Assembly (NCBI GenBank): GCA_016296065.1
Contig: JAEDKA010000001.1
Location: 68,591-132,590, forward strand
DNA: 64,000 nt
Direction: 5' to 3'
DNA from: Kiritimatiellia bacterium
GTDB taxonomy: Bacteria > Verrucomicrobiota > Kiritimatiellia > RFP12 > UBA1067
How positions within the stretch are numbered: position 1 is the first letter of the stretch; the number at the start of each line of letters is the position of its first letter. The position numbers and the translations under genes are program-made. This document shows, in pieces, positions 196 to 60,678 of the stretch. Under the pieces are notes generated by a model. That model was given only the letters and a program-made list of their open reading frames with translations. It did no database searches and had not been told where the DNA came from.

Positions 196-261
196 CTGCG
201 TAAATTTCACGGTACTTTTTGCGCAATATAGTCGTTTGTGACCTTGGGAATATGATAAAAT
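196..261 (+). promoter_or_regulatory. Promoter module copy 1 (tandem operator units plus extended -10), drives CDS 294-4232
   Basis: Unit 1 is CTGCGTAAATTTCACG (196-211) and unit 2 is TTGCGCAATATAGTCG (219-234). There are 32 nt between GCG (221-223) and TAAAAT (256-261), which is preceded by TGa (253-255). The ATG at 294 is about 26 nt from the predicted TSS, with GGGAG upstream of it. Confidence 0.6.
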
Positions 262-293
262 AACTTCAAACAAATATGCAGGGAGTCTAATTT

Positions 294-3200
294 ATGCCCC
301 AAAAAACAATCAAGACCCTTCTTTTCGCAACGTCGTCGGCGTTGTCCTTTGCTGCTTTTTCCGCGCAGATCTACTGGAAATCCACTGTAACAGAAGGATA
401 CATCGACACGACTGGCGACAGCAGTGGCTGGACTGGCGGGGTAGTCCCTGGCAATGGCGATGCAGGCGAATTCAACAACTCGCTGAGCGCGAATACAACA
501 TACACCGTGAAGATTCCGACGGAAGGCGGCTCCTTCACGTTCCCTGCGTCCATAGGCGGGGCGGCCATTCCGCAGGGCACGAAGGTAGTGTTCGACGCAA
601 CCGGGACGAAGTGGGTCATGTCGACTACGCCCGGTACCGCGTGGACGAAGGCCGTTCTTGAATTCAGCGATGCGAGCGGAGATATCTTCGGCATTCAGAA
701 CAGAGATGCGTCAAAGGATAGCGACTACTACGGCCTGAGCCTCGACGACGGCAAGATAAGCTACGAGCACGATGCGGACGGATATGTCGTGAAGCTCGAG
801 AGCGGAACGATCGACGCTTATAATCTTCCCGGCGGCGGAACCTCCCTGCATTCGCTCAGGCTTCTTTATTCGAACGGGAGTTCAAACAACAGGGTCGTGT
901 TCGGCGCAGGCACGAAGTCCGTCTTTCAGAGCGTCGTGATCGGCGGGCGTTCGCAGGGCGGCTATGTCCTCGTCGAGGGCGGCGAGCATAAGATTTACAA
1001 CGGGCTTAAGGTAGGCGGCTGGAACGACGCCCCGAATGCTGAACTGCGCATCACCGGCGGAACACTGTCTGCGATGGCGAGCGGCGGTTCCGTTGATGTC
1101 GGAGGAGCGGCCTGCCCGGCAAGGATCGTAGTCTCCGGAACGGGCGAGTTCACAAACGATGTGGGCTCGGTTTACTGTCCGAACAACAGCGGCGCCAACG
1201 GAACGATTGAACTTTCCGGCAATGCAAAGTGGATTCATGCGCGCGTGTTTGGTCTTGCCCTGGGTCACAGCGGCGGAACTGGCAGCATTTCCATGGGGGA
1301 CAACGCCGTCTTCTTGTCGCCAGGCGGTATCAATGTCGGTGACTCGGCGAACGGCACTGGCAGCATTCTGATCAAGGATGAGGCGGAAATGTCCGTAAGC
1401 ACCATCACCCTCAGCCATGCCGCCAATACGACGTCCGAGCTGACAATGCTCGGCGGCACGCTGAAACTTGCGTCCAATGCTTCCATCACCTCCGGCAACG
1501 GATCGCCGTTCAAGGGCGGCGCGGGCACGGTCAAGTGCCTTTTCGACGGTGGCACGATCATCCCTGGCGGAAACGATTCGCAGACCGTCCAAAGTGTGCC
1601 TGCCGTCGAGCTGGGTGTGAACGGCGTCACTGTCGATACCGGCTCCAATGGCAACGTCAAGTGGAGTGCGAAGACGCAGAACGCGAAGGACTCCCAAAAC
1701 AAGGATGTGGCCGGTCTGTTTGTCAAGGACGGCAGCGGCGTGCTTATCGTCAGAATGTCCGAGACGGACAATTCCGCCGTTGCGCCGTACAACGGACGCC
1801 CGCTCAACTCCGAGCATGCGAACACTTTCGTCAAGACGGGTACGCTTCGCTTCGACAACCAGAACGCGACGGACGGCTACTGCAGGTTCGGCAACAATGT
1901 CACTGTCAACGGAGGGGCGACGCTCAGTACGGAGTACAACGGCTGCACGCGTCTCAAGATGAATACTCTCACGCTCGGCGGAGAGACGGGTACGGCGACA
2001 GTTAAGCTCGACTTCGGTGATGTCGTCGAAATTGACGCAGCCGACGGGCTTGCCGTTGTCGGCTCGGCCCAGGTCGACATCTCCAACTGGACGTCCGCAG
2101 CCGTCGGCAGCGAGTATACCGTATTCAAGTGCGCAGGCTCCGTCCCGCTGGGCGTTCTTTCCAGAATCGTCATTTATGGAGTCTCGAACAGGGACTATGC
2201 CTGGAAGACCGCAACGGACGAGGGCGGCAACACTCTCTGCAACATCTACGTTGCCGAGGAAGGCATGCTACCGCTTACGATCACGTATGCGAACGACGCG
2301 GTGACGACGAACGGGCTCGGCACGGCGGTGACGGCCATCGTCGCCGAGCAGTCAGGGACGCAGGTCGGCGACATAACGCTCGCGCGCGGTACGTCTGTTT
2401 CAGTCGCGGAGGATATGACGCTCAACCTCACCGGCGACATGACAGGCGGCGGCACTTTGCTCACGAAGTCTGGCTCCGGCAAGCTTGTGGTGAGCGGCAA
2501 CAACTCCGGCTTTACCGGCTCGTTTGTCTCGCAGAGCGGAACGCTCGAGGTGAAATCCAGGGACGCGCTTGGTCCGCAGACGCTCACTTCACCTCTCGTC
2601 CTCGGGAATGGAACGTTCAAGTACAGCTCCAGTGATCCAGCCACGTTCAATGCCGCGCTGAAGCTCTCCGGCAATATCGCAGGCAAGGCGGTGATTCTCG
2701 ACAACACAGGCGACCTCACCTTCAACGGGCTGGTACATGAGAAGGGGCTTCTTGTCAAGAAGGGCGCAGGCGCGCTTGCGTTCGACCTCCCTGCCGGAAC
2801 CTACTATCTCGGACACGACAATATTGACGGCGATGGGGGAGAGCACGATGGTGACCTCGTGCTGCCCGAGAGCGGCGACGCACCCGAGACCAATACCGGA
2901 ATGTACGGCGTGACGATTGCCGAAGGTGCCTTGAAGATCAAGGGCACCGGGGCGGACGGAGCGTCGAAGACACAGGTCAACACCGACAATACCATCATAG
3001 TCGGCACCGGTTACGCGGCACAGGTGGCACCTGCGGTTGTCGTCGAGAATGCAAGGATGGAATTCGGCAAGGGAAGCCGTCACGGAACGATCATGGCACG
3101 CTATCCAGTTGCTAGCCCGGTTCCAGAGATACATCTCACCAACGCCTTTTTCCACGCCAACTTCCCGACGTTCGGGCGCCATACATCGACAGGCGGTGTG

Positions 3201-4232
3201 AGCGACATCGGTCCTACGGTCACCATGAGCAATTCCACCATTTCGTGCGAATGGAACTGCACCCTTGGCAGCGCCGGATTCGCGAGCGTAACCCTCGATG
3301 CCGACGACTCCGTGTTCAACATCGAGCGGAACGTCACCATTGCGGCGAGCAAATTCAACGCCGATTTCCACGGGAAAACAGCTGCGTTCTCCGCAAGCTA
3401 CAATTCAGGTTCCGAGGGTGGCTGGATTGCATCCCATAACCATCCGCAGGGCACGATCATGTTCCGTGACGGGGCTTCGATGAAAACGACACTTGGAATC
3501 CGCTTTGCCGGTTCCCAGCTCGAAGTGAAGTTCGACGGCGGCACGTTCGAGATACTTCCGCACAACACGGCGGAATGCAAGACGGCTACATCCACCTGGG
3601 TGAACGCCAACCGCGGCATCGAGACGACCGGAGCCGGAATGTCCGTCAAGATCGCCGAGGGGTCGACGCACGACTTCAACTTCCCGGTGAAGGGAACGGG
3701 TTCCGTGACGAAGACGGGTGCAGGAACGTTCAAGCTCGTCGCGCCGCGCACGGCGGGCGAGAAGCTCCTCCAGTACACGGGCGGTACGGTCGTCTCCAAC
3801 GGCACGCTCGTCGTGGACGGATCGCTTGTCGCGGACGGCGCGAAGTCGTTCGAGGTCGCAGAGGGCGCGACGCTTGACCTTAACGAATCGACGCTTGCAA
3901 GCGCGACAATCTCGGGCGCTGGTGTCGTCACGAACGGCACGCTCTCTGCGGCGACGATCGCCTACGACGCCGATGCGGTGCTCACCTTCGAGGATGTTGC
4001 GTTCAACGGCGCGCTCACGGTGGACTTCGGCTGCACGGCGGAGAATCCTCTCGACAGTGATGCCGGCAGAGCGGGCATCACCGTCGCGCACTACACCGGT
4101 GGGGCGCCGGTCATCGCGAAGGTCGTTCCGGCCAACACCGGCATTGTCCGCGCCAAGGCGAAGGTGGAGTGCAACGAAGGCGATATTGTCGTGACCGTCG
4201 TGCAGAGTGGACTGCAGGTGTACATCCGCTGA
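294..4232 (+). CDS. Giant secreted beta-helical surface protein with autotransporter-associated (PATR-type) beta-strand repeats and a GLQVYIR-stop tail
   Basis: Uninterrupted 1312-aa ORF. The signal peptide is MPQKTIKTLLFATSSALSFAAFSAQ. The sequence is rich in G/T/N/S repeats, including GGGTLLTKSGSGKLVVSGNNSGFTGSFVSQSGTLEV and GTGSVTKTGAGTFKLV...YTGGTVVSNGTLVVDG. The C-terminal half is collinear with CDS 7880-12421 (shared EGSTHDFNFPV and YTGGTVVSNGT). Confidence 0.85.
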   Translation: MPQKTIKTLLFATSSALSFAAFSAQIYWKSTVTEGYIDTTGDSSGWTGGVVPGNGDAGEFNNSLSANTTYTVKIPTEGGSFTFPASIGGAAIPQGTKVVFDATGTKWVMSTTPGTAWTKAVLEFSDASGDIFGIQNRDASKDSDYYGLSLDDGKISYEHDADGYVVKLESGTIDAYNLPGGGTSLHSLRLLYSNGSSNNRVVFGAGTKSVFQSVVIGGRSQGGYVLVEGGEHKIYNGLKVGGWNDAPNAELRITGGTLSAMASGGSVDVGGAACPARIVVSGTGEFTNDVGSVYCPNNSGANGTIELSGNAKWIHARVFGLALGHSGGTGSISMGDNAVFLSPGGINVGDSANGTGSILIKDEAEMSVSTITLSHAANTTSELTMLGGTLKLASNASITSGNGSPFKGGAGTVKCLFDGGTIIPGGNDSQTVQSVPAVELGVNGVTVDTGSNGNVKWSAKTQNAKDSQNKDVAGLFVKDGSGVLIVRMSETDNSAVAPYNGRPLNSEHANTFVKTGTLRFDNQNATDGYCRFGNNVTVNGGATLSTEYNGCTRLKMNTLTLGGETGTATVKLDFGDVVEIDAADGLAVVGSAQVDISNWTSAAVGSEYTVFKCAGSVPLGVLSRIVIYGVSNRDYAWKTATDEGGNTLCNIYVAEEGMLPLTITYANDAVTTNGLGTAVTAIVAEQSGTQVGDITLARGTSVSVAEDMTLNLTGDMTGGGTLLTKSGSGKLVVSGNNSGFTGSFVSQSGTLEVKSRDALGPQTLTSPLVLGNGTFKYSSSDPATFNAALKLSGNIAGKAVILDNTGDLTFNGLVHEKGLLVKKGAGALAFDLPAGTYYLGHDNIDGDGGEHDGDLVLPESGDAPETNTGMYGVTIAEGALKIKGTGADGASKTQVNTDNTIIVGTGYAAQVAPAVVVENARMEFGKGSRHGTIMARYPVASPVPEIHLTNAFFHANFPTFGRHTSTGGVSDIGPTVTMSNSTISCEWNCTLGSAGFASVTLDADDSVFNIERNVTIAASKFNADFHGKTAAFSASYNSGSEGGWIASHNHPQGTIMFRDGASMKTTLGIRFAGSQLEVKFDGGTFEILPHNTAECKTATSTWVNANRGIETTGAGMSVKIAEGSTHDFNFPVKGTGSVTKTGAGTFKLVAPRTAGEKLLQYTGGTVVSNGTLVVDGSLVADGAKSFEVAEGATLDLNESTLASATISGAGVVTNGTLSAATIAYDADAVLTFEDVAFNGALTVDFGCTAENPLDSDAGRAGITVAHYTGGAPVIAKVVPANTGIVRAKAKVECNEGDIVVTVVQSGLQVYIR

Positions 4233-4258
4233 TGCGTCAGGAGTTGCCGTCATGTCTG

Positions 4259-4292
4259 GAGGCGCCGTGTGCTTAATTTGCGCCGGCGCCTC
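4259..4292 (+). terminator. Stem-loop after the giant-protein gene, weak terminator candidate
   Basis: gaggcgccg (4259-4267) pairs with cggcgcctc (4284-4292). The 16-nt loop is long and only atgttt follows. Confidence 0.35.
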
Positions 4293-4296
4293 ATGT

Positions 4297-4362
4297 TTGC
4301 GCAAAATTCACGGTTATTTGTGCGTTTTGTTCACGGCGAGGGTGGTGGAAAAATTGTATAAT
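4297..4362 (+). promoter_or_regulatory. Promoter module copy 2, drives CDS 4428-7658
   Basis: Unit 1 is TTGCGCAAAATTCACG (4297-4312) and unit 2 is GTGCGTTTTGTTCACG (4319-4334). There are 32 nt between GCG (4322-4324) and TATAAT (4357-4362). The predicted leader is about 59 nt. Confidence 0.6.
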
Positions 4363-4427
4363 GTTAGCGTAAATCCGAGGTGTAGGATTTGCATTGCGTT
4401 TTAAACATAAAAACGAAAGGTCGAATA

Positions 4428-7400
4428 ATGAAACGAACGATGGCAGCTGTCGGTATGTCGCTCATGGCGATATCGGCTTTTGCGGCGCTCGACGAAATCG
4501 AGCTCAAGGACTGGATGCTTCAGGACGCAACGGTCGTCGAGGCGCAGGCGAAGAAGGAGGGTTGGTTCAAGTACAACTCCGCCTGCCAGACGACCGAGGG
4601 CGAGAAGCTGTCGCTGAACGGATACGACGCGAAGGGCTGGTACAAGGCGACCGTTCCCGGAACGGTCCTCACCACGCTCGTCGACAACGGAGTCTATCCC
4701 GAGCCCACGTACGGCGAGAACAACCGCCCCGAGATCATCCCCGACGACCTCTGCAGGAAGGACTGGTGGTACCGCACGAAGGTCCGCGTTCCGGACAGCT
4801 TCAAGGACAAGACCGTCTGGCTGAACTTCGACGGCATCAACTACCACGCCGAGATATGGGTGAACGGACGCATCACCGGCCGCATGACGGGCGCGTTCAA
4901 GCGCGCGTCGTTCGACCTCGCGAAGAGCGGCGACGCAAAGGCGGGGAAGGACATCTCCATCGCCGTCAGAATCTCGCCGCAGCCGACGGTCGGCGTGCCG
5001 AGCGAGCACACGATGGGCACGACGGGCGGACCGTGCGGAGGCGTCGCGCGCCTTGACGGTCCCACTTTCGGGTGCTGCGTCGGCTGGGACTGGCTCAGCG
5101 GAGTCCGCGACCGCGAGGCGGGGCTCTGGCGCAAGGTGACGCTTTCCGCGACCGGCGACGCGAAGATTCTCGATCCGCAGGTCGTGACGGACCTCCCTGC
5201 GCTTCCGAAGCTCGACACGGCGACGGTGTGCGTTAACGTTCCTGTCAGGAACCTTTCCGAGAAGCCTCTCGAAGGGACGGTCACCGTTGCGTTCGACGAC
5301 GTTAAGATCTCCAAGAAGGTCGCGCTTGGGCCCTCCGAGACGAAGACGGTCGCGTTCGCTCCTGCCGAGTTCGCCGCGCTCAACGTGAAGAATCCGAAGC
5401 TGTGGTGGCCCAACGGACTCGGCGAGCCCGCGCTCCACGATATGAAGATATCGCTTTCCGCGGCTGGGAAGGACAGCGACGAGAAGTCCCTCAAGTTCGG
5501 CATCCGCAAGTTCGACTACTTCGCCGGGAACAAGCCAGAGTTCGCGCTCGCCGTAAACGGTGTGAGGGTGTTCATGAAGGGCGGCAACTGGGGCCTTGAC
5601 GAGATGCTCAAGCGCATCCGCCGCGACAGGATCGACGCGCAGGTCCGGCTCCACCGCGAGGAGAACTTCAACATGATCCGCGACTGGGGCGGGATGAGCC
5701 AGAGCGAAGAGCTCGCCGACGCGTGCGACAAGTACGGCATCATGCTCTGGGAGGACTTCTGGCAGTTCAACTCGATCGATCCCGTAAACACGGACTTCTA
5801 CTTCACGCACGTGAAGGACACCATCCTCAGGTTCCGCAACCACGCATCGCTCGTTCTCTGGTGCTCGCGCAACGAGGCGACGCCTCCGAAGTACCTTGAC
5901 GACGAGATGCGCTTCCTCCTGAAGGAGCTCGATCCGACGCGCCACTACCAGGCCAATTCCGGCGGCGGATACGGTTTCAACTCCGGAGGTCCGTACGACT
6001 GGGCGCCGCCCGCGCGCTTCTCGCGCTTCATGGATGATCCGTCCTGGAAGAAGCAGGAGACGTTCAAGACCGAGATCGGCGGCGTGTCGATTCCGACGAT
6101 CGAGTCCCTCATGTCGATGTTCCCGAAGGAGGACTGGGAGGGCTTCACGGACGCGTGGGGCGAGCACAACATGTGCGCCGGCGGCGGCAGGAAGTATCCG
6201 CGCTTCATGGCCACGCGCTACGGCGAGATCCGTAACTTCGCCGACTTCGCCCGCAAGGCGCAGCTCATGAACTACGAGACGCACCGCGCGATCTACGAGG
6301 GGCGCATCGGACGCATGTTCGAGCCGATGGAGGGTGCTCTCCTGTGGATGAGCATCCCGGCGCAGCCGAGCCTCATCTGGCAGTCGTTTACCTACGACCT
6401 CGACACGCACGCAACGTACTTCGGCATCAAGAAGGGCTGCGAGCCGCGCCATGTGTTCTTCAACGAGTCGGCCGAGGGTGGAATGGTCCAGGCGGTCAAC
6501 CATGGCCGCACGCCGTTCGAGGGCAAGGCCAAGTTCTCGATCTACAACCTCGACGCGACGCTTGTCGGAACGCAGGAGTTCGCCGTGAAGCTCGGCCCTG
6601 CGCAGAAGATGAAGCTCGGTGACGTCAAGTGGCCGGAGAACCTCTCGAAGGTCCACTTCATGAAGGCGGAGCTCTTCGACGCCGCCGGTAAGCTCGTCAC
6701 CGACAACTTCTACTGGCACAACCGCGCGTGCAACCCCGCGAAGGCTGACGAGCTGCGCGACGACAACAAGATTGTCCGCTACGACGACCTCAAGGACCTC
6801 GATACGCTTCCGAATGTTACGCTCGAGGCCAAGGCGAAGTCCGCCGTGCGCGAGGGCAAGACGCTCGTCGCTGTCGAGCTCAGGAATCCGTCCAAGTCCG
6901 TGGCGCTTATGGCGCACATCCAGCTCCGCGGCGCGAAGACGGCCAAGCGCGTCCTTCCGACGACGTACTCCGACAACTACGTGTCGCTCCTTCCTGGTGA
7001 GACGAAGAGGCTCGTCGCGCAGTGCGACACCGTGCAGCTCAACGGCGAGCAGCCGTTCGTGACGGTCGACGGATGGAACGTCACAGTCGCGAAGAGCGAC
7101 ATGGTGGGTCCGAACGAGATCGCCTCTCCCGACGCGAAGGAGTGGGCGCACCAGAAGGGCTTCGGGTTCCTTCCAAAGCCTCTCGTCGCGAAGAAAGTCG
7201 TGCGCATCAACTGCGGCGGATACAACCGCGGAAACTTTGAGAAGGACCCTGGCTTCCTCGAGGCGCCGGTAGGGTTCCGCACCGAGCCCATGGACCTCTC
7301 CGATTGCCCAGACGCCGGACCCGAAGACATGTACCGCACGGTCCGCTGGGGCGAGTCGGTCTACTCCAACCTCCTCTCCAAGGCAAACGCGCCGTACACG

Positions 7401-7658
7401 GTCCGTCTCCACTTCGCGGAGAGCGAGAAGTCCAAGTGCGACGGAAAGAATATGATGGACGTCCTTGCGAACGGCGAGCCGATCCTCACGAACTTCGATC
7501 CCGCTTTCGCAGGACTCTACAAGGCCGGCGTCAAGGAGGTCAAGCACGTCAAGTCCGACGCGAAGGGCTACGTGAACCTCTCGTTCGTGAAGGGCAAGAA
7601 GGTCGGCAACGAGTCGCGTGATCCGCGCATCAACGGATACGAGATCATACCCGAGTGA
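4428..7658 (+). CDS. GH2-family glycosidase (beta-mannosidase / exo-beta-glucosaminidase-like) with a C-terminal malectin-type carbohydrate-binding domain
   Basis: The ORF-track start at 4389 is TTG. ATG 4428 gives the signal peptide MKRTMAAVGMSLMAISAFAAL. GH2 hallmarks are VDNGVYPEPTYGENNR, NFNMIRDWGG and WCSRNEATPP. The C-terminus reads RINCGG...YTVRLHFAE...INGYEI, which is a malectin-like pattern. Confidence 0.9.
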   Translation: MKRTMAAVGMSLMAISAFAALDEIELKDWMLQDATVVEAQAKKEGWFKYNSACQTTEGEKLSLNGYDAKGWYKATVPGTVLTTLVDNGVYPEPTYGENNRPEIIPDDLCRKDWWYRTKVRVPDSFKDKTVWLNFDGINYHAEIWVNGRITGRMTGAFKRASFDLAKSGDAKAGKDISIAVRISPQPTVGVPSEHTMGTTGGPCGGVARLDGPTFGCCVGWDWLSGVRDREAGLWRKVTLSATGDAKILDPQVVTDLPALPKLDTATVCVNVPVRNLSEKPLEGTVTVAFDDVKISKKVALGPSETKTVAFAPAEFAALNVKNPKLWWPNGLGEPALHDMKISLSAAGKDSDEKSLKFGIRKFDYFAGNKPEFALAVNGVRVFMKGGNWGLDEMLKRIRRDRIDAQVRLHREENFNMIRDWGGMSQSEELADACDKYGIMLWEDFWQFNSIDPVNTDFYFTHVKDTILRFRNHASLVLWCSRNEATPPKYLDDEMRFLLKELDPTRHYQANSGGGYGFNSGGPYDWAPPARFSRFMDDPSWKKQETFKTEIGGVSIPTIESLMSMFPKEDWEGFTDAWGEHNMCAGGGRKYPRFMATRYGEIRNFADFARKAQLMNYETHRAIYEGRIGRMFEPMEGALLWMSIPAQPSLIWQSFTYDLDTHATYFGIKKGCEPRHVFFNESAEGGMVQAVNHGRTPFEGKAKFSIYNLDATLVGTQEFAVKLGPAQKMKLGDVKWPENLSKVHFMKAELFDAAGKLVTDNFYWHNRACNPAKADELRDDNKIVRYDDLKDLDTLPNVTLEAKAKSAVREGKTLVAVELRNPSKSVALMAHIQLRGAKTAKRVLPTTYSDNYVSLLPGETKRLVAQCDTVQLNGEQPFVTVDGWNVTVAKSDMVGPNEIASPDAKEWAHQKGFGFLPKPLVAKKVVRINCGGYNRGNFEKDPGFLEAPVGFRTEPMDLSDCPDAGPEDMYRTVRWGESVYSNLLSKANAPYTVRLHFAESEKSKCDGKNMMDVLANGEPILTNFDPAFAGLYKAGVKEVKHVKSDAKGYVNLSFVKGKKVGNESRDPRINGYEIIPE

Positions 7659-7692
7659 CATCGGCGAAACTCATTCCGGGTGCATAATGCGT

Positions 7693-7727
7693 CCGCGCGG
7701 CACATCTGCCGCGCGGGCGCTTTTTTT
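7693..7727 (+). terminator. Rho-independent terminator (twin of 54524-54560)
   Basis: A perfect 10-bp stem, ccgcgcggca (7693-7702) with tgccgcgcgg (7707-7716), encloses the loop catc. It is followed by gcgc and then T7 (7721-7727). It lies 35 nt after the stop of CDS 4428-7658. Confidence 0.85.
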
Positions 7728-7784
7728 CTGCATTCAGATCTGAATTTTCCGGTTGGTGATAGGCATTTTCCGGAAAAGATTCTG

Positions 7785-7850
7785 TTGCGCAAATTTCACG
7801 ATTGTTTTTGCGCGAAATTCGTTCTTTGCCTGCGGCTGTTTTGTTACAAT
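7785..7850 (+). promoter_or_regulatory. Promoter module copy 3, drives CDS 7880-12421 and 12445-15090
   Basis: Unit 1 is TTGCGCAAATTTCACG (7785-7800) and unit 2 is TTGCGCGAAATTCGTT (7807-7822). A 32-nt spacer leads to TGtTACAAT (7842-7850). Confidence 0.6.
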
Positions 7851-7879
7851 ATAGGCGATCATTGACCAAGGAGGATCGA

Positions 7880-12421: not shown

Positions 12422-12444
12422 CGGGCATAAAGGGTAACGGAAAC

Positions 12445-15090: not shown

Positions 15091-15113
15091 GCCTGTTTTT
15101 ACAATCTCCCCTC

Positions 15114-15147: not shown

Positions 15148-15181
15148 CGTTAGGGAAGCTGGCAAAGCTGTTTGAATCGCC

Positions 15182-15247: not shown

Positions 15248-15253
15248 ATTAAC

Positions 15254-52296: not shown

Positions 52297-52362
52297 TTGC
52301 GTAAATTTCACGATATTTTCTGCGTTGTGTTCACGCAGCAGAAATGTGCTATATGCTATAAT
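52297..52362 (+). promoter_or_regulatory. Promoter module copy 8, predicted leaderless start for CDS 52369-54423
   Basis: Unit 1 is TTGCGTAAATTTCACG (52297-52312) and unit 2 is CTGCGTTGTGTTCACG (52319-52334). A 32-nt spacer leads to TGcTATAAT (52354-52362). The spacer gaaaac is followed by ATG 52369, with no Shine-Dalgarno sequence. Confidence 0.6.
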
Positions 52363-52368
52363 GAAAAC

Positions 52369-54423
52369 ATGAAAACTGTAAAAATCATGTTGGCGGGCGC
52401 GGCGGCTGTAGCTGTTGCGCAGGTTGTTGCGATGCCGGGCGCATCCCGGCGCGCAGAGGCGGAGGCCCAGGCCAAGGCGATCTTCGAGAAGCTTGCGCCC
52501 AACGACGCGGTCTCGCTGCTGATGATGGACAATCTCGAGATCAAGGACCCGGCGATTCCCCGTCACCACTGGTGGAACGAGGGACTTCACGGCGTAGCGC
52601 GCGCGGGCCTCGCGACGATGTTCCCGCAGACGATCGGGCGCGCCGCGACGTTTGACGCAGAACTGGAGCACAAGGTCGGAGACGTGGTATCCACCGAGGC
52701 GCGCGCCAAGCACAACCTCTTCCGCGCGAAGGGACTTCGCGGAATCTACACCGGCCTCACGTACTGGAGCCCCAACGTAAACATGTTCCGCGACGCCCAC
52801 TGGGGCCGCGGACAGGAGACTTTCGGCGAGGACCCGTACCTCGCCGGCGTCATGGGCACGGAGTTCGTCAAGGGCCTCCAGGGCGACGACCCGAAGTTCA
52901 TCAAGATCGCCGCGTGCGCCAAGCACTACGCCGTCCACTCGGGCCCCGAGAAGCTGCGCCACGAGTTCAACGTCGACCTCGACATGCGCGACCTCTACGA
53001 GTACTACCTTCCCGCGTTCAAGATGCTCGTCGTCGACGGGAAGTGCGAGCAGGTCATGGGAGCCTACTCGGCTGTCAACGGAATCCCGTGCTGCGCGAGC
53101 AAGTTTCTCCTCAGGGACGTCCTCCGCGGCGAGTGGGGCTTCCGCGGCACGGTCGTTAGCGACGTTGGCGCGGTCAACGACGTGTCCGCGAACCACAAGT
53201 ACACCAAGACCAAGGTCGAGGGGTGCCTCGCGACGATCGCGGGCGGACTCGACATCTGCAGCGAGGGCACGTACGACTGCCTGCGCGCCGAGGTGCGCGA
53301 GGGACGCGTCACGAAGGAGCAGCTGCGCGAGCCAGTGCTGAACATCCTCACGACTCGCATCCTTCTCGGCAACATCGGCGACGTGGAGACGCCGTGGGAC
53401 GGCCTCGGCGAAAATGACGTCGCGACGCCCGAGAACAAGGCGCTTGCGCTCCAGTGCGCCGACGAGTCGATGGTCCTCCTCAAGAACGACGGAATCCTCC
53501 CGCTCGATGTCTCCAAGCTCAAGGCAGTCCGCGTCTGGGGCCGAGAGGACGACGTCAAGCCGCTCGTCGGCAACTACGAGGGCTCCGCGAGCGTCTACAT
53601 GACGGCGCGCGCCGGCCTTGCCGCCGAGCTCGGTGCAGGCGTCGCCATCGAGGGCGACCACGCCGAATACAGCATCATGATCGCCGGACTCACCCCCGGC
53701 GATGAAGGCGAAGGGCACGACAAGCGTGACTGCAGCATGCACAAGAACCATCTGGAGCAGTTGAGGAAGTGGCAGGGCGAGCGCAAGCGCCGTCCGATCA
53801 TCACCGTCCTCTACGGCGGCAGCCCGATCGAGATCAAGGAGGTCTGCGAGCTTTCCGACGCGGTCATCTTCGCGTGGTATCCGGGCGAACAGGGCGGACG
53901 TGCCATCGCGCGCGTGATCACCGGAAAGGTCAATCCTGCGGGACGCCTTCCGATCACGTTCATGGAGAACTACGCGGAAGAGGCCGACCTCACGGACTAC
54001 AAGCTCCCCGGCCGCACCTACCTCTACGCGACGAAGAAGCCGCTCTTCCCGTTCGGCTACGGACTCAGCTACACGACATTCGGCTACGACGGGCTCAGGG
54101 TCTACAAGACGAAGGACGGAGTCGCCGCCACGGTCAAGGTGACGAACACCGGCAAGGTCGCCGGCGATGAAGTCGTCCAGCTCTACGTCCGTTCGCCCGA
54201 AGGCTCCGGCGACCGCCGTCTCCATCACCTCGAGGGCTTCAAGCGCGTGAGCCTCAAGCCGGGCGAGACGAAGAACGTGCCCTTCGCGCTCAAGCCCGAG
54301 CAGCTGATGCAGTTCGGCATGGACGGGAAGCAGTCGCTCGCGAAGGGCGAGTATACCGTATTCGTCGGCGGTGGCCAGCCCGGCTTCGCCGAGGGTGTTC
54401 TGTCCGCCAACCTCTCGTTCTAA
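52369..54423 (+). CDS. GH3 beta-glucosidase / beta-xylosidase (BglX-like), paralog set member 4
   Basis: The ORF-track start at 52126 is TTG, overlaps the previous CDS and runs through the promoter. ATG 52369 gives MKTVKIMLAGAAAVAVAQVVAMPGASRRAEAEAQ, which is collinear with the N-termini of the paralogs. Motifs are HHWWNEGLHGVARAGLATMFPQTIG and GTVVSDVGAV. Confidence 0.9.
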   Translation: MKTVKIMLAGAAAVAVAQVVAMPGASRRAEAEAQAKAIFEKLAPNDAVSLLMMDNLEIKDPAIPRHHWWNEGLHGVARAGLATMFPQTIGRAATFDAELEHKVGDVVSTEARAKHNLFRAKGLRGIYTGLTYWSPNVNMFRDAHWGRGQETFGEDPYLAGVMGTEFVKGLQGDDPKFIKIAACAKHYAVHSGPEKLRHEFNVDLDMRDLYEYYLPAFKMLVVDGKCEQVMGAYSAVNGIPCCASKFLLRDVLRGEWGFRGTVVSDVGAVNDVSANHKYTKTKVEGCLATIAGGLDICSEGTYDCLRAEVREGRVTKEQLREPVLNILTTRILLGNIGDVETPWDGLGENDVATPENKALALQCADESMVLLKNDGILPLDVSKLKAVRVWGREDDVKPLVGNYEGSASVYMTARAGLAAELGAGVAIEGDHAEYSIMIAGLTPGDEGEGHDKRDCSMHKNHLEQLRKWQGERKRRPIITVLYGGSPIEIKEVCELSDAVIFAWYPGEQGGRAIARVITGKVNPAGRLPITFMENYAEEADLTDYKLPGRTYLYATKKPLFPFGYGLSYTTFGYDGLRVYKTKDGVAATVKVTNTGKVAGDEVVQLYVRSPEGSGDRRLHHLEGFKRVSLKPGETKNVPFALKPEQLMQFGMDGKQSLAKGEYTVFVGGGQPGFAEGVLSANLSF

Positions 54424-54645: not shown

Positions 54646-54711
54646 CGGCGTATTTTTCACGGTGGATTTTGCGCAGAATTCACTGTTCCAGCTTCGCTCT
54701 TATGGTATAAT
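54646..54711 (+). promoter_or_regulatory. Promoter module copy 9, drives CDS 54741-57998 and the downstream operon
   Basis: Unit 1 is CGGCGTATTTTTCACG (54646-54661) and unit 2 is TTGCGCAGAATTCACT (54668-54683). A 32-nt spacer leads to TGgTATAAT (54703-54711). AAGGAG at 54727-54732 precedes ATG 54741. Confidence 0.6.
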
Positions 54712-54740: not shown

Positions 54741-57700
54741 ATGGGTAGAATTGACATTGCGGCGCTCGCGGCGCTCGCGGCGCTTCCGGTCATGGCGGGT
54801 TCTGTCGTGGACTTGTCCGGCAAAGGCTGGACGTGCGAGCAGAACGGGGTGACGAAGGAGGTGTCCGTTCCGGCGGACGTCGAGGAGTACTTCGCGGACA
54901 TGTCCGCGTACGCCGCGCCGAGGATCGACGCAAGCCAGCACGGATCGTGGATCGTCAGGCAGTGGCTCAAGTGCAAGGGCGAGTCGACATGGCGCAGGAA
55001 GTTCACCCTGAAATCCAAGCCGGCCGGCAAGCGCATCGTCCTCATGTTCGAGTCCACGAGGTATTTCGCCGACATCTTCGTGAACGGGAAGTTCGTGCAC
55101 CACGACGAGGCTCCTGACACGCCGTACGAGGTCGACATCACGGACGCGGCGAAGTCAGGCGAGAACGAACTCCTCGTCAAGATCGTCAACCCCGAAGGCG
55201 GCGACTACGACTGGCGGGACTTCAACACCTGCAAGTGGGAGGGCAAGCAAATCCCCGGCGGACGCGCAATGGGCGGACTCTCCGGACGCGTGAAACTCGA
55301 CGTGCGCGACATCGTCTCGATCGACGACGTATTCGTCCAGAACACGCCGGCGATCAGCGAGGTCGAGGTGTTCGTGTCCATCACCAATGCGGGAACCAAG
55401 GCGGAAAAGCGTCTGGTCAGGCTCGAGGTTGAGCCCAAAGGCGTCGTATTCTCGAAGGAGATGACGCTCCAGCCGGGACTTACGGTCGTGAGCGAAAAGG
55501 CGTCCGCTCCGGAGGCGAAGCTCTGGGACCTCGATAATCCCAACCTCTACAATGCAGTCGCGACGGCCGGCGGCGAAACCTTCCGGCGCGAGTTCGGCTA
55601 CCGCTGGATCGCGCCGGAGGGAATCGGAACCAACGCAGTCCTCCGGCTCAACGGAAAGCGAATAGTCGTCCGCACCGCCATCGGCTGGGGGTGGTATATG
55701 GGAAGCGGAACCGTCCCAAGCGACGAAGACGCGCGCCGCGAAGTCGCGACGGCCAAGGCTCTCGGACAGAACGGAATAAGCTTCCACCGGCACAACGGCC
55801 AGGAGAACATCCTCCGCGAGGCCGATCGCAACGGCCTTCTCATATACGCGGAACCAGGCGCCTTCCAGGGCGGCCGGCATTCGGATATCGGACGGCGCAT
55901 AGCGCTTGAGCGCGTGCGCAGGTGGGTGAAGGCGTTCCGCAGCCATCCCTCGCTCTTCCACTACAACCTCATCAACGAGTTCAGCGACACGTGCGACGAC
56001 GCGACGCGCAAGTTCTTCCTTGACGGCGTGAGGCTCGTCCATGAGCTCGATCCTTCACGCACGGTGACGCTCATGAGCGCGTGGGGCAAAGACGGCATCA
56101 ACGTCAGGCATTTCCCGAAGACCCACATGCGCCCGTTCGATCCGGAGCTGTACGAGTCCGGCTGGCGCGACTTCCATCGCGCAGGCGGACCGGTGATCGG
56201 CTGGAGCGCCGGAGCGTACCGCAACAAGGACGCGTACAACAACAGGTCCTCGAACCTCGAGGAGATAGTGTACTGGGGTGAGGAGAGTGCCTTTACGGCT
56301 CCGCCGCGGCTGCAGCTCATCGTCGACGAACTTGACCGCCGCGGGCGCGACGGAACGGACGGCAGGGTGTTCCGCGTCTGGGCGGACATGGTGAACAAGT
56401 ACCTCGACAGAAAGGGGCTGCGGGGGACGTATCCCACGCTCGACGCTTTCTGCCTCGACCTCGGGCGGCAGAGCCTGCTGCACCAGGGCCGCAACATCGA
56501 GCTAGTCCGGATGGACGACGTTGCGGACGGCTACGCAATCAACGGCTGGGAGTCGATGGTCGTGGAGAACAACTCCGGCATCGTCGACACGATGCGCAAT
56601 CCCAAGGGCGAGCCGAAGTGGCTTGCCAAGTACAATGCTCCGCTCAAACTCTGCGTCAATTCCAACCAGTCGAGGGTGAGAAAGGGCCAGAACATTTCGG
56701 TGGACGTCCACATAATCAACGAGGTCGACCTCAAGGGGCCCCAGAAACTCGTCGTGGAGCTGTGGAATCTCGATGGCGGGGAACGCAAACTCGCCGAGGA
56801 GCGGCGCGACGTCTCGGTGACTGGCGGAGAGCGCTTCGGGGAATTCCTCTCCGAAAAGATATCGTTCAACGTTCCGTTCGCCGGCGAGGGCGAGGTGCGC
56901 GCGCACCTGGAAGGCGTGAAGGATGCGACGGGCGACTTCCCGTTCACTTCGTTCGACCTCGCCATTCCCGAATTCCCCGCCGGATACAAAATCGCCGTGG
57001 CCGAGGCTGGAGACACCATTCTCAAATGGCTCCGCGGACAGAAGCTTCCGTGCGAAACCTACAAGCCCGGAGTAAAGGCCGACGTCGTGATCGTCTCCCG
57101 CCCGCCCGGCGCGCTGCCGGCGGTTCCGGACGCACAAAGCCTCGTTGGACAGCGCGGCACGCCGGGCGTGGTCGACGTCAGGTGGTACGTGGGCGAGAAG
57201 CTGGCGGCGGAGGATACCCGGAATTCTCTCGAAGTGGAATTTCCGCAGGGGGTTCCGCCCGCGAAAGGCGTAGATCTTACGACCGGTTATTCCGTCTGCG
57301 TCGCTGGCTGCTACGTCGCGAGGTGGGACGGACGCTACCGCTTCAGGATCGAAGGGCCCGACCGCAACGCCGACAAGCTAAAGTTCTTCTGGAACGGCGA
57401 TGACGTGAAGTTCGACAGCGACGGCTACATGTCGGTTGAACTCAAGGCGGGAGATTCGATTCCGTTCTACATTACCATGACACAGCGGCGCGCGAAGAAA
57501 CTGAGCGTCATCGCCGAGACCCCGGAGCCGGTCGAGGACTTTAATCCCGACGAGCTTGTCGCATGCGCAAAGAACGACGGCGCGCGGGTCGTGTTCGTCG
57601 ACAACGTCAAGGTGTGGATGCCTGTTGTCGCAGACCTGGTCGGCGTCAAGTACGACGGATGGTTCCATATCGGGCAGAGCTGGCTCGGCGGCGCGTTCTT

Positions 57701-57998
57701 CAAGAAGAAAGGCGATCCTCTCCTGGCTGGCTTCCCCACAGGAGCCGTCAACGAGGCCTACGAGGAGATTGCCGGGCACGGCAGCCGCTACGGACTCTTC
57801 CTCGAAGGCGAGGATCTCGCGATGGGAGCGTGGCAGTGCGAGAACTGCAAACTCGGCACCGTCGTGGGACGCATTCCCTGCGGCAAGGGCGAGGTTGTCG
57901 TTTCCACGCTGAATCTGGTCAAAAGCCTCAATACATACGGCGGCACGCGCTATTTCTACAATCTTCTCACGCGCTCCGGCGCCGTTTCGCGCAAGTAA
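54741..57998 (+). CDS. GH2-like glycosidase with a PA14-like insert and a C-terminal amidotransferase-like fold domain
   Basis: 1085-aa ORF with the signal MGRIDIAALAALAALPVMAGS. The GH2 sugar-binding-domain pattern is RKFTLKSKPAGKRIVLMFESTRYFADIFVNGKFV...YEVDITD. A TIM-barrel stretch reads GISFHRHNGQENILREADRNGLLIYAEPG. A PA14-like stretch reads YRFRIEGPDRNADKLKFFWNGDDV. Subfamily and specificity are unknown. Confidence 0.8.
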   Translation: MGRIDIAALAALAALPVMAGSVVDLSGKGWTCEQNGVTKEVSVPADVEEYFADMSAYAAPRIDASQHGSWIVRQWLKCKGESTWRRKFTLKSKPAGKRIVLMFESTRYFADIFVNGKFVHHDEAPDTPYEVDITDAAKSGENELLVKIVNPEGGDYDWRDFNTCKWEGKQIPGGRAMGGLSGRVKLDVRDIVSIDDVFVQNTPAISEVEVFVSITNAGTKAEKRLVRLEVEPKGVVFSKEMTLQPGLTVVSEKASAPEAKLWDLDNPNLYNAVATAGGETFRREFGYRWIAPEGIGTNAVLRLNGKRIVVRTAIGWGWYMGSGTVPSDEDARREVATAKALGQNGISFHRHNGQENILREADRNGLLIYAEPGAFQGGRHSDIGRRIALERVRRWVKAFRSHPSLFHYNLINEFSDTCDDATRKFFLDGVRLVHELDPSRTVTLMSAWGKDGINVRHFPKTHMRPFDPELYESGWRDFHRAGGPVIGWSAGAYRNKDAYNNRSSNLEEIVYWGEESAFTAPPRLQLIVDELDRRGRDGTDGRVFRVWADMVNKYLDRKGLRGTYPTLDAFCLDLGRQSLLHQGRNIELVRMDDVADGYAINGWESMVVENNSGIVDTMRNPKGEPKWLAKYNAPLKLCVNSNQSRVRKGQNISVDVHIINEVDLKGPQKLVVELWNLDGGERKLAEERRDVSVTGGERFGEFLSEKISFNVPFAGEGEVRAHLEGVKDATGDFPFTSFDLAIPEFPAGYKIAVAEAGDTILKWLRGQKLPCETYKPGVKADVVIVSRPPGALPAVPDAQSLVGQRGTPGVVDVRWYVGEKLAAEDTRNSLEVEFPQGVPPAKGVDLTTGYSVCVAGCYVARWDGRYRFRIEGPDRNADKLKFFWNGDDVKFDSDGYMSVELKAGDSIPFYITMTQRRAKKLSVIAETPEPVEDFNPDELVACAKNDGARVVFVDNVKVWMPVVADLVGVKYDGWFHIGQSWLGGAFFKKKGDPLLAGFPTGAVNEAYEEIAGHGSRYGLFLEGEDLAMGAWQCENCKLGTVVGRIPCGKGEVVVSTLNLVKSLNTYGGTRYFYNLLTRSGAVSRK

Positions 57999-58015: not shown

Positions 58016-58567
58016 ATGAAATTCCGCAAAGCAGTTCTTTCCGCGTTGATTGCCGCCGCAGCCTCTGCGGCGGCGGCGGACCAGGCCTCGCCGCGCCTCA
58101 TCGGGCGCTTTTTCAGCGAGAAGAGCTCCCGGGAGGAGCACAGGCTCGGCATCGCCGCGTTCGCGGACATAGACCTTTCCGGCGAGAGCGAGGATTCGCT
58201 TGAACTCGCCGGGGAGATCAGGGTCGATTGTCTGCATCCGAATGCGCCCAAGGACTCCGCCTGGATGAAAAAGATATGCAACGGCAGCTTCTCCATCGCC
58301 GGGACGGACGGCAAGTATATGCGGGTCGCGCCGATGGGGTGCGGCTTCGGCGTGCTCGCCGGATGCGACATGGCCGGCGAGTGGTTTCCCGTCAGCCTCA
58401 AGATCCCCCTGTCGCAGCTGAAAGGCTCGAGAATCACTAAACTCGAATTATTCATGTACAACGATACCGCGGCGTACGCGCAGCATGCGGACGACGGCAA
58501 CAAGTGGAACAACGGTTCCGGAATAAAGCTGCGTGCGCGCAATTTCCGCGTGCAGGCGGTCAGGTAA
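58016..58567 (+). CDS. Small secreted protein consisting of one copy of the uncharacterised domain found at the C-terminus of GH3 16789-21090
   Basis: ATG 58016 follows AAAGGAG (57999-58005). The signal peptide is MKFRKAVLSALIAAAASAAAA. It aligns with residues of 20578-21087: DLSGESED vs DLSGQEDY, HPNAPKDSAWMKKICNG vs HPNPPRGNAWLKYIVNG, GEWFPVSLKIPLSQLKGSRITKLELFMYND vs GEWMTMTHKIPSARLNGARLTRFETYMFND, and DGNKWNNGSGIK vs DGNTWNNDTGVK. The ORF-track 5' extension to 57563 overlaps the previous CDS. Confidence 0.8.
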   Translation: MKFRKAVLSALIAAAASAAAADQASPRLIGRFFSEKSSREEHRLGIAAFADIDLSGESEDSLELAGEIRVDCLHPNAPKDSAWMKKICNGSFSIAGTDGKYMRVAPMGCGFGVLAGCDMAGEWFPVSLKIPLSQLKGSRITKLELFMYNDTAAYAQHADDGNKWNNGSGIKLRARNFRVQAVR

Positions 58568-58612: not shown

Positions 58613-60634
58613 ATGGAAACGAAGACGATTTGCGCCGGGATGCTTCCGCTCGGCCTGGTTGGCCTTGCCTCGCTGAGGCTGCTAGCTGCGGAGCCGCGCG
58701 TCATAGAGTTTGCGTCCGGCGTGACGCGGCTTGACGCGCCGATCGTCCTCGGTCCGGAAGACTCGGGGACGATCCTGCGCGGCGCGGCCGACGGCTCGAG
58801 CGTCGTCTCCGGCGCGCGGGAACTGAAGGGCCTCGTCTTCGCGCCTGACGGACGCGGCGCATTTGCCGCGCCGTGCGAGGAAGGGCCGACGGATCAGCTG
58901 TTCGTGGACGGAGTCAGGTATGACATGGCACGATTTCCGAACAGGACAGAGGGGAAGAATGTATACGGGACGTGGTCGCTCGACGAGAGCCGCGCGTATG
59001 CGCCCGAGAAGGACGCGCTTCTCCCCGGTCGCGTTGCGAAATGGGCTCGTCCCGAGACAGGCTGGCTCCATGCGATGCATGAAGCCCTCTGGGGCGACAT
59101 GCACTGGAAGATCGACGGCGTCGGCGAAGACGGAAAGCTCAAGCTGACCGGCGGGTGGCAGAACAACCGAAGCTCTGCCCCCCATAAGGTGTTCAGGTAC
59201 GTGGAGAACATCCGCGAGGAACTGGACAGCCCCGGCGAGTGGTTCTACGATGCCGCTGAAAGAAAGCTCCACGTCGTTCCTCTCCCCGGCACAGACCTGG
59301 CGAAGGCCCGCATAGAGTCTGTGGAGCTGCGCTCCCTCGTCGTCGCGAGGGGAAACGAAGGCAGACCGGTGCGCGGAATCGTCGTCGAGAATTTGTGCTT
59401 CACCGGAGCGGCCCGGACATTCATGGAGAACAGGGAGCCGCTTCTCAGGAGCGACTGGACGCTCTGCCGCGAGGCGGCGGTGACGTTTGAGAATGCCGAG
59501 GACTGTCATGTCCGGAACTGCTCGTTCCGCAGTCTTGGCGGAAACGCCGTGCTTGTGGACGGCCATGCGAAGAACGTGTCCGTAACAGGCGCGACGTTTG
59601 AGGACATCGGCGCGAGCGGCGTCATTTTCGCCGGCCGGCCCGACTGCGTGAGAAGCCCGCTGTTCAACTACTCCTCTGCATACAACGCCTCGAAGATGGA
59701 TCTGGCCGTGCGCGGTCCGAAGAGCGAGAGTTATCCGCGCGACTGCCACGTTGAGTCGTGTCGCTTCCTGCGCACCGGTCGCGACGAGAAGCAGACTGCG
59801 GCCGTTCAGATCACGATGGCGGCGAGGATATCAGTGCTCAGGTGCTTCATCCGCCGCACGCCCCGCGCGGCGATAAACATCGGCGACGGATGCTTCGGCG
59901 GACACTTGATCGAGGGGTGCGACGTCGCGGAGACGGTGCTTGAGACAGGCGACCACGGTGCGTTCAACAGCTGGGGACGCGACCGCTACTGGCAGCCTAG
60001 CATCCCGAACTTCGAGAAGGAGGTTCTGAAGAACACGGAGCTTCCCTTCCTCGACGCGGTGGAGCCGACGGTCATAAGGGGCAACAGGTGGCGGTGCGAC
60101 CACGGCTGGGACGTCGATCTCGACGACGGCTCGTCAAACTACATAATCGAGGACAACGACTTTCTCGCCGGCGGCCTCAAGCTGCGGGAAGGGTATCGGC
60201 GCATAGTTCGCAGCAACCGCGCGCTGTCCAACACGCTGCACCGCCACTGCTGGCCGGCAAAGTGCGGCGACGTCGTCGTCTCGAACGTGTTCGCGCGTCC
60301 GTTCGCGGACATCGGGCTTCGCTGTGCGGAAGGAGACGCGACGATCAGGGACAACATCTTCCTGTCGGGCGAGCGCCGCGGCGCCAAGCCGACGTTCGAG
60401 TGGAAGGGCGGACGCGTCCGCGAGTTCGACGGCCCGTTCGAGTTCTCTGCCTTCGGCGTGACTCCGGAGACGGTCGGAATCGTCGTCGTAGTGCCGCCTG
60501 CCGGAACTCCGTTCGAAGCTGGCGACCTTATTCCCGACGTAACGCGCGAGACGCTGCCGGAGATTCCGCTGAAGGGCGGTGTAGAGGTCGTCCGAACGCA
60601 GAGACGCCTTGTGTTGCGCGATTTTCACGATTGA
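58613..60634 (+). CDS. Secreted right-handed parallel beta-helix protein (pectin-lyase fold, glycosidase or lyase candidate)
   Basis: 673-aa ORF. GGGGAG precedes the ATG and a signal-like N-terminus is present. Beta-helix repeat stretches read VENLCFTGAART, NCSFRSLGGNAVLVDG and VTGATFEDIGASGVIF. Its last codons (LRDFHD-stop) overlap promoter module copy 10. Confidence 0.8.
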   Translation: METKTICAGMLPLGLVGLASLRLLAAEPRVIEFASGVTRLDAPIVLGPEDSGTILRGAADGSSVVSGARELKGLVFAPDGRGAFAAPCEEGPTDQLFVDGVRYDMARFPNRTEGKNVYGTWSLDESRAYAPEKDALLPGRVAKWARPETGWLHAMHEALWGDMHWKIDGVGEDGKLKLTGGWQNNRSSAPHKVFRYVENIREELDSPGEWFYDAAERKLHVVPLPGTDLAKARIESVELRSLVVARGNEGRPVRGIVVENLCFTGAARTFMENREPLLRSDWTLCREAAVTFENAEDCHVRNCSFRSLGGNAVLVDGHAKNVSVTGATFEDIGASGVIFAGRPDCVRSPLFNYSSAYNASKMDLAVRGPKSESYPRDCHVESCRFLRTGRDEKQTAAVQITMAARISVLRCFIRRTPRAAINIGDGCFGGHLIEGCDVAETVLETGDHGAFNSWGRDRYWQPSIPNFEKEVLKNTELPFLDAVEPTVIRGNRWRCDHGWDVDLDDGSSNYIIEDNDFLAGGLKLREGYRRIVRSNRALSNTLHRHCWPAKCGDVVVSNVFARPFADIGLRCAEGDATIRDNIFLSGERRGAKPTFEWKGGRVREFDGPFEFSAFGVTPETVGIVVVVPPAGTPFEAGDLIPDVTRETLPEIPLKGGVEVVRTQRRLVLRDFHD

Positions 60635-60678
60635 TTTTGCGTTATTCTGCGCTCAAGCGCAGATTTCTTTGGTATAAT
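60614..60678 (+). promoter_or_regulatory. Promoter module copy 10 (overlaps the 3' end of CDS 58613-60634), drives CDS 60717-62030 and the downstream operon
   Basis: Unit 1 is TTGCGCGATTTTCACG (60614-60629) and unit 2 is TTGCGTTATTCTGCGC (60636-60651). A 31-nt spacer leads to TGgTATAAT (60670-60678). The stop codon of the upstream CDS (60632-60634) lies between the two units. Confidence 0.55.

Follow-up and report, generated by a model that had tools for sequence, protein, structure and literature searches.

Ten copies of one promoter module punctuate a stretch of 64,000 nucleotides (nt) from the genome of an uncultured rumen Kiritimatiellia bacterium (contig JAEDKA010000001.1, positions 68,591 to 132,590 of the forward strand; hereafter the window), each composed of the motif TTGCGY-N4-TTCACG (unit 1), a 7-nt linker, a weaker second copy of the motif (unit 2) and, at a fixed distance downstream, an extended -10 element of the form TGnTAnAAT. 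The first 39 nt of this module are probably the operator of one activator, for which a XylR-type protein of the AraC/XylS family, encoded outside the window, is the likeliest candidate. The motif recurs with fixed geometry, is restricted to a few related genomes and, within these, to genes for glycan degradation or large exported proteins, and is linked to a regulator gene, observations from which we infer binding, activation rather than repression, an inducer and the transcription starts. Rumen and hindgut Kiritimatiellae are abundant and uncultured and, to our knowledge, nothing is known about the regulation of their very large sets of glycan-degrading enzymes.

Geometry of the module

With at most one mismatch, TTGCGYN4TTCACG occurs 14 times in the window, always on the + strand, compared with 1.3 occurrences expected from shuffled sequences (shuffle maximum 4), and the four matches outside unit 1 are copies of unit 2 located 23 nt downstream. 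A 39-nt matrix trained on 16 sites, all of them from other genomes with the window sites left out, places at its top ranks exactly the ten sites on the + strand that the original prediction had named (33.6-55.8 bits); the next-best window position, at 9.9 bits, is unit 2 of one of these sites, the best match on the - strand scores 11.1 bits and the maximum over 20 shuffles is 4.0 bits. The consensus of 22 sites reads TTGCGyaatTTTCACGrt..tTTTTGCGc....TTCaCg-N19-T.TG.TATAAT. Within the operator the hexamers start at positions 1, 11, 24 and 34 (10/13/10 spacing), all four begin with TT, and the bases between them are A/T-rich. Units 1 and 2 are direct repeats in one orientation with a period of 23 base pairs (bp), for which no dyad symmetry is required. 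The near-invariance ascribed to unit 1 holds overall, with the first hexamer deviating to CTGCGT in the module at 196 and to CGGCGT in that at 54646.

Inspection of the sites gave the predicted distance between the GCG of unit 2 and the -10 hexamer, 32 nt at nine window sites and 31 nt at 60614, and the spacing shorter by one nt also occurs in the related loci L011 (4077) and L122. TGn precedes the hexamer at nine window sites and TG is directly adjacent to it at 4297, again as predicted. If the hexamer occupies -12 to -7, the operator of 39 bp extends from about -72 to -34 and stops where a -35 element would be expected to start, with the end of unit 2 lying 21 nt upstream of the TGnTAnAAT hexamer at about 38 of 39 sites in related loci; the positions -72 to -57 and -49 to -34 given earlier for the two units depend on this assignment, which concerns a predicted hexamer. 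A scan of positions 1-20000 for canonical -35/-10 promoters picks up none of the four module promoters in that interval, which bears out the claim that a canonical -35 is absent. Unit 2 was considered as a -35 element and rejected, as the distances of its hexamers to the -10 are 31 and 21 nt, and a class II site of the CRP/FNR type (a 22-bp palindrome near -41.5) was equally discarded, as the units are asymmetric and TTGCGCAA is palindromic at some sites only, being replaced elsewhere by TTGCGTAT and TTGCGCGA.

Strong intrinsic terminators just 5' of the modules starting at 7785 and 15182 (7689-7720 and 15113-15141, respectively) and a terminator-like hairpin with T-run 5' of the module at 54646 fit the boundaries of transcription units, and at three modules an ATG follows exactly 6 nt past the hexamer (15248-15256, 23875-23883 and 52363-52371). 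Taken together, they speak for the promoter assignment and hint at transcripts without a leader, which the sequence thereby implies for several unrelated genes of the regulon. An ATG at 6 nt past the -10 is also seen in L002, L009, L010, L083, at 3031 of L139 and at the nadC-operon promoter of L151. Other genes of the regulon have leaders of 20-65 nt with AAGGAGG Shine-Dalgarno sequences.

Occurrence in related genomes

An exhaustive exact scan for both units plus the -10, with a pattern that matches eight of the ten window sites, covered one genome for each of 185,579 species and returned 12 stretches, of which eight are true and lie in four rumen Kiritimatiellae metagenome-assembled genomes and four are chance matches in unrelated phyla. 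The four genomes, Kiritimatiellae Tb.RUG.298, RUG14632 and RUG14821 and "Verrucomicrobia" SRR873601_bin.89, hold one to four strict matches each, most of them orthologues of window promoters, and are 83-94% identical to the window at the nucleotide level; loci L002, L005, L013 and L147 all come from Tb.RUG.298, the closest species representative with about 94% nucleotide identity. As the pattern matches eight of ten window sites and finds one to four stretches per genome, the numbers point to a regulon of roughly ten to twenty promoters and not to a general element. In a scan of metagenomes for the units alone, chance matches and a human-gut coding sequence repeated identically in about 35 contigs predominated, and at least seven true sites are found among the matches listed, namely in L075, L083 (two), L098, L122, L125 and L132. 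At those in L075, L098, L122, L125 and L132, which are independent sites, the -10 lies at the same distance, and the downstream genes that can be annotated are of glycan type. The human-gut sequence TTGCGTCAAGTTCACGTTCGATCTTGCGGATCTGCTGGCTGATGGCC... (L020, L025, L027, L034, L037 and about 30 more) is a fortuitous unit match unrelated to the module, being apparently coding sequence of different G+C content that lacks a -10.

Across 304 kb of related loci, 39 sites were recovered, many of them orthologous or identical copies, with the register between operator and -10 kept at about 38 of 39 sites. The annotatable genes downstream of these sites all encode a glycoside hydrolase (GH), an esterase or a large exported protein, and no housekeeping gene within the 304 kb has a site. 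Thirteen matches of at least 18 bits in control loci from outside the Kiritimatiellae are uninformative, as these loci had been chosen for matching 17 motif bases. In a more distant Kiritimatiellae relative (L135/L136), where a 29%-identical homologue of the first window gene has uvrC and ATP-binding cassette transporter genes as neighbours, the module is absent. In L011 of RUG14821, about eight tandem units of 40-45 nt with CGATTAYGGTDCGGAA lie directly 5' of a module (approximately 3790-4070) and show no obvious coding potential.

Besides a tandem-repeat site for one activator, which is supported here, it had been suggested that the module might be a general, lineage-specific promoter element read by RNA polymerase, either as an unusual upstream element or through an alternative sigma factor. 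This is very improbable and effectively refuted. The module does mark every native unit start of the window and keeps a fixed spacing to the -10, and its A/T-rich intervening bases are like those of an UP element, but strict stretches number one to four per genome in only four of the species scanned, the -10 is of the housekeeping sigma type, and the information content at -72 to -57 is far above that of any known UP element. Moreover, module-bearing genomes have promoters without it: TGnTAnAAT is present and the module absent upstream of mraZ-rsmH-ftsI in L143 and L147, at the efp, nadC-operon and tRNA promoters of L151 and at the promoter of a protein of 1551 amino acids (aa). Such promoters, housekeeping ones among them, suggest that an extended -10 and frequent leaderless starts are how promoters of this lineage are generally built; the tandem repeat upstream, judged by its distribution, is specific to one regulon.

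Equally hard to credit is that the ten copies are a promoter cassette which duplication or a mobile element has spread, with no selection on a binding site. The modules at 37675 and 39725 do belong to a genuine tandem duplication of genes whose leaders and N-termini are nearly identical, but outside this pair, which the original prediction had also set apart, neither the flanks nor the 18-21 nt that separate unit 2 from the -10 can be aligned from site to site, orthologues too are conserved in the hexamers and the -10 only, and terminal repeats or target duplications around the modules were not found. Extended similarity with defined ends, as expected of a cassette resembling a miniature inverted-repeat transposable element (MITE), is thus lacking. 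At the orthologous promoters of a GH2 gene and of a gene for a 1500-aa protein the alignment breaks directly 5' of unit 1, and units 1, 2 and the -10 are invariant between species of 83-94% identity, whereas the intervening spacer drifts, which argues for selection on a binding site and against duplication.

The junction without a module

Eleven transcription-unit starts had been counted in the window, ten of them with the module. The ten stand, but the eleventh is not an ancestral start: 35341-35648, the only long intergenic region of the window without a module, holds a 286-nt insertion at 35343-35628. This insertion, in contrast to the modules, is flanked by a direct target-site duplication of 10 bp, AAAGATAAGG (35333-35342 and 35629-35638); its terminal inverted repeats are imperfect, and an internal inverted repeat has arms of 52 nt (35388-35439 and 35541-35592; fold z-score -3.8). 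The orthologous junction in Tb.RUG.298 (L013) is without the insertion, and the GH63-like gene follows the previous gene there after about 16 nt, from which it follows that this gene once belonged to the operon of the module at 23809. The insertion is recent and MITE-like and splits an operon, and effectively every native unit start of the window carries the module. Further copies of the insertion were found neither in the window nor in the fetched loci. It carries TTCTATAAT, which could act as an outward promoter.

Candidate regulator and proposed mechanism

As predicted, the window annotation contains no regulator gene, and no DNA-binding protein is encoded in the 64 kb. Short Logan contigs retrieved by exact-protein look-ups extend the window by 2.6 kb to the left and 1.3 kb to the right and contain more genes for carbohydrate-active enzymes (CAZymes); a regulator gene was not found in these extensions. 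Relatives, however, encode a protein of 380-390 aa with Peripla_BP_3 and HTH_18/HTH_AraC domains, that is, a sugar-binding fold of the LacI/GalR type joined to the double helix-turn-helix (HTH) of AraC. Its gene is divergent from a module-bearing GH2 promoter in all seven contigs, with the start codon 44-47 nt from unit 1, and the seven proteins are 66-100% identical to one another. The contigs are L139, with five modules in 24 kb; L140/L141 (bin.89, a sister species), where the gene is located one gene upstream of a GH92-GH31 operon orthologous to that at 23809 of the window; L142; L143; L147, from Tb.RUG.298; L151/L152 (66% identical); and L125 (68% identical, contig G+C 50%). The best match of the regulator among solved structures is Escherichia coli XylR (PDB 4FE4/4FE7; E = 1.3e-29, over both domains), and no curated NCBIfam equivalog claims it.

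At 6001-7301 of L149 (and in L150) lies the gene of a regulator paralogue with 46% identity, and a LacZ-type GH2 gene comes after it. The promoter of this GH2 gene has the same geometry, TTACGC-N4-CAGGCG-N7-TTGCGT-N4-ACATCT with 31 nt from GCG to TATCAT; relative to the sites described above the first hexamer is kept and the second changed, and in the protein the recognition helix of HTH1 is similar and that of HTH2 different. This parallel change, a single case read from sequence, is suggestive of a pairing between regulator and operator. The two TT(A/G)CG(C/T) elements of the L149 promoter also form an inverted repeat (TTACGCAAA / TTTGCGTAA). Two further regulator-like sequences were noted: a 49-aa HTH_18 fragment just 3' of the regulator gene (L140, 11214-11363), possibly the remnant of a second regulator, and a second full-length regulator of the same two-domain build, with a periplasmic-binding-protein (PBP) fold and an AraC-type part (L142, 14337-15557), which lies beside genes for an FGGY sugar kinase and an SSF transporter and is possibly a true pentose regulator.

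AraC at araI1-araI2 and XylS at Pm bind direct repeats of about 16-17 bp, in each of which two sub-sites are spaced by one helical turn, between approximately -75 and -35. The modules likewise present two direct repeats in the range of 15-20 bp with sub-sites about one helical turn apart, and a candidate double-HTH regulator was found in close relatives only. Two unlike hexamers whose starts are 10 bp apart constitute the footprint expected of one AraC-type domain, which inserts its two HTHs into successive major grooves. Each 16-nt unit would be bound by one such domain and the two tandem units by a dimer, whereby the strong, nearly invariant distal unit 1 would anchor the protein and a probably sugar-dependent occupancy of the weaker unit 2 would put a subunit beside region 4 of sigma or the C-terminal domain of the alpha subunit. 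RNA polymerase would thereby be recruited to an extended -10 promoter without a -35, a class II activation as at araI, Pm and xylA/xylF, and some 24 glycan-degrading genes, all in one direction and arranged in ten transcription units, would be turned on at once. Given the distance of 44-47 nt between its own start codon and unit 1 of the divergent module in relatives, the regulator is probably autoregulated.

Several observations weigh against the assignment of the operator to this regulator. The modules adjoining the regulator gene have a variant unit 2 (TTATCGCG...TCACG), and L144, which encodes a 64%-identical regulator with the same recognition helices, has a degenerate module only, lacking a -10 at the usual distance. 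The repeats have a period of 23 bp, as opposed to 21 bp at araI or the XylS sites. The adjacency of regulator and module might merely reflect conserved synteny with the neighbouring GH2 gene, and the presence of the regulator in this exact genome is presumed from relatives of 91-94% nucleotide identity.

The module could instead be the operator of another activator, for example of a response regulator of the OmpR/PhoB or LytTR type that binds the four hexamers as two dimers, although this is unlikely. Four TT-initial hexamers at 10/13/10 spacing recall tandem response-regulator boxes, direct repeats of the ComE/AgrA type are also located about 35-75 nt 5' of promoters without a -35, and binding of the XylR-like protein to the units is a prediction about what may be a neighbour by synteny alone. 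Yet the hexamers within a unit consistently differ (TTGCGY versus TTCACG), which is easier to reconcile with one protein having two unlike HTHs than with identical winged-helix domains. Among the genes called in the regulator-side loci none encodes a response regulator or histidine kinase, and it is the PBP-AraC regulator, conserved at 66-100% identity, that is divergent from the module in seven of seven contigs. Boxes of the OmpR/PhoB type, with one hexamer or heptamer at a period of 10-11 bp and a two-component system nearby, fit the differing hexamers and their 10/13/10 spacing poorly, although a distant response regulator might conceivably bind them.

Less likely still, the same pair of protein and DNA might act mainly as a repressor or looping operator, with the island being off until a sugar releases the protein. 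AraC-family proteins, E. coli XylR and AraC among them, are able to form DNA loops between sites (PMC3561964), and extended -10 promoters can work without a -35, so that an activator is not strictly required. The operator, however, lies wholly upstream of -34, at no site overlapping the -10 or the transcription start, as is classic for an activator, and a repressor would not need the register of operator and -10 that is fixed to one nucleotide at about 38 of 39 sites; this register points to a stereospecific contact with polymerase and hence to activation over repression.

Comparison with known systems

Escherichia coli XylR binds sites of about 37 bp that consist of two direct repeats next to the -35 (PMC3561964). 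Its two operators, IA and IF, serve xylAB and xylFGH. In both systems two direct repeats make up the operator, 37-39 bp in total, which here would likewise lie directly 5' of the -35 position of a promoter of the sigma-70 type; the candidate regulator has the same two-domain architecture and predicted targets that are likewise sugar-catabolic, and in the Kiritimatiellae relatives regulator and putative target promoter are divergent. The operator sequences are unrelated, TTGCGY-N4-TTCACG as compared to gaAa-a-a-AAT, ten or more operators per genome contrast with two, and the predicted targets are secreted glycoside hydrolases instead of a pentose pathway. The promoters described here, moreover, have an extended -10 and no -35, are in several cases apparently leaderless, and show no evident CRP site.

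In araI1/araI2 and in the modules alike, the distal repeat is strong and the promoter-proximal repeat weaker. The sensor domain of the candidate has a PBP fold, whereas that of AraC is a cupin, and for the O2-like upstream looping site of AraC no counterpart was identified at the modules. A similar role, the sugar-responsive control of a large CAZyme island of a gut anaerobe through an AraC-type DNA-binding output, is fulfilled in Bacteroidota by the regulators of polysaccharide utilization loci, which comprise hybrid two-component systems with AraC-type output, SusR, and extracytoplasmic function sigma/anti-sigma pairs. Unlike these, the candidate is a soluble one-component protein without kinase, receiver or periplasmic sensor modules, and one type of operator serves ten promoters, compared with one or two promoters per locus in Bacteroidota.

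Literature searches on the motif and on Kiritimatiellae promoters gave nothing relevant, in keeping with the earlier statement that the motif was not recognised from any described regulon. The motif thus appears to be undescribed in its sequence and in this lineage, and the proposed class of mechanism is familiar, of the textbook AraC/XylR type. That a single soluble XylR-like sensor directly drives at least ten near-identical class II promoters, several of them leaderless, over a co-directional CAZyme island of more than 64 kb is a proposition for and against which we see even chances.

Predicted target genes of the ten modules

The window has a G+C content of 61.6%, and its approximately 24 genes, without exception on the + strand, code for large exported proteins or proteins of glycan degradation. 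The enzymes include several GH2, six GH3, GH92, GH31 and GH63-like proteins, and the further products are a SASA esterase, pectate-lyase-like proteins, a GDSL/FAD-oxidoreductase, giant PATR-repeat proteins, a GFO/IDH/MocA oxidoreductase and a xylose-isomerase-like TIM protein. Rfam families and tRNA genes were not found in the window, nor does its gene annotation hold SusC/SusD genes.

All modules lie on the + strand and are numbered here in their order along the window. Module 1 (196-261; 39.4 bits) has CTGCGT-AAAT-TTCACG as unit 1 (196-211), unit 2 at 219-234 and the -10 TAAAAT at 256-261 after TGA, and its predicted target encodes a 1312-aa PATR-repeat protein (294-4232). In module 2 (4297-4362; 50.2 bits), unit 1 (4297-4312) is followed by GTGCGT-TTTG-TTCACG as unit 2 (4320-4335) and by TATAAT at 4357-4362, and a GH2 gene (4428-7658) would be transcribed with a leader of about 65 nt; this module is kept in L005, L006, L083 and L139. 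Module 3 (7785-7850; 48.1 bits), with units at 7785-7800 and 7808-7823 and TACAAT at 7845-7850, is predicted to serve the genes for a 1513-aa protein (7880-12421) and a GH2 enzyme (12445-15090). The -10 of module 4 (15182-15247; 55.4 bits) is TATTAT at 15242-15247, and its probably leaderless first target, for the SASA esterase (15254-16723), is followed by a GH3 gene (16789-21090) and a pectate-lyase-like gene (21101-23770).

Module 5 (23809-23874; 52.8 bits), one of the three with an ATG 6 nt past the hexamer, here TATAAT at 23869-23874, is predicted to drive a GH92 gene (23881-26034), a GH31 gene, two GH3 genes and a pectate-lyase-like gene up to 35340. Orthologous modules occur in L009 and L010/L140, and in the sister species the operon also takes in the GH63-like gene located at 35649-37538 in the window.

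Module 6 (37675-37740; 52.3 bits) precedes the predicted target for a 635-aa protein (37763-39670) and has an orthologue in L013. Its paralogue, module 7 (39725-39790; 55.8 bits), is predicted to serve 39813-43148, the GDSL/FAD-oxidoreductase gene (43161-46997), a GH3 gene (47019-49085) and a LacZ-type GH2 gene (49086-52277). The genes 37763-39670 and 39813-43148, which match no Pfam family, are a tandem duplication with near-identical promoters, leaders and N-termini (MVMKSLHRMAAKS...), and the duplicated pair is also present in Tb.RUG.298 (L013).

In module 8 (52297-52362; 50.0 bits), unit 2 is CTGCGT-TGTG-TTCACG and the -10 TATAAT, again with an ATG 6 nt on, and the predicted target is a GH3 gene (52369-54423). 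Module 9 (54646-54711; 42.4 bits) has CGGCGT-ATTT-TTCACG as unit 1 and unit 2 at 54669-54684; its predicted targets are a GH2-like gene (54741-57998), the gene 58016-58567 and that of a beta-helix protein (58613-60634). Unit 1 of module 10 (60614-60678; 33.6 bits), the one with the shorter spacing, overlaps the 3' end of the latter gene, and the predicted targets are the genes for the GFO/IDH/MocA oxidoreductase (60717-62030), the xylose-isomerase-like TIM-barrel protein (62057-63406) and a GDSL/3-keto-disaccharide-hydrolase fusion (from about 63443). This trio (60717-64000) also occurs in L001 (6421-10547) and in L139, there 3' of a GH2 gene, and is reminiscent of oxidative (3-keto) pathways of glycoside cleavage.

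Implications for the regulation of glycan degradation

The advance lies in annotation and physiology and not in concept. What is gained is an operator of about 40 bits with its consensus and geometry, a candidate regulator that can be named and has a sugar-binding pocket, and a predicted target set of about 24 genes in the window, with GH2, GH3, GH31, GH92 and GH63-like enzymes, esterases and the oxidoreductase/3-keto-glycoside cluster, and the regulon can be tested in vitro without culturing the organism and traced in metatranscriptomes. A promoter style of the lineage is documented as well: the -10 is extended, the promoters examined show no conserved -35, and leaderless starts are frequent. 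The parallel change in L149 hints that DNA recognition by a large family of such regulators, in gut members of the Planctomycetes-Verrucomicrobia-Chlamydiae group, follows a simple code that can be read. Should the proposed regulation prove true, no earlier operator and regulon would have been defined in the phylum Kiritimatiellota, and the system would offer a one-component alternative to the regulators that act locus by locus in Bacteroidota.

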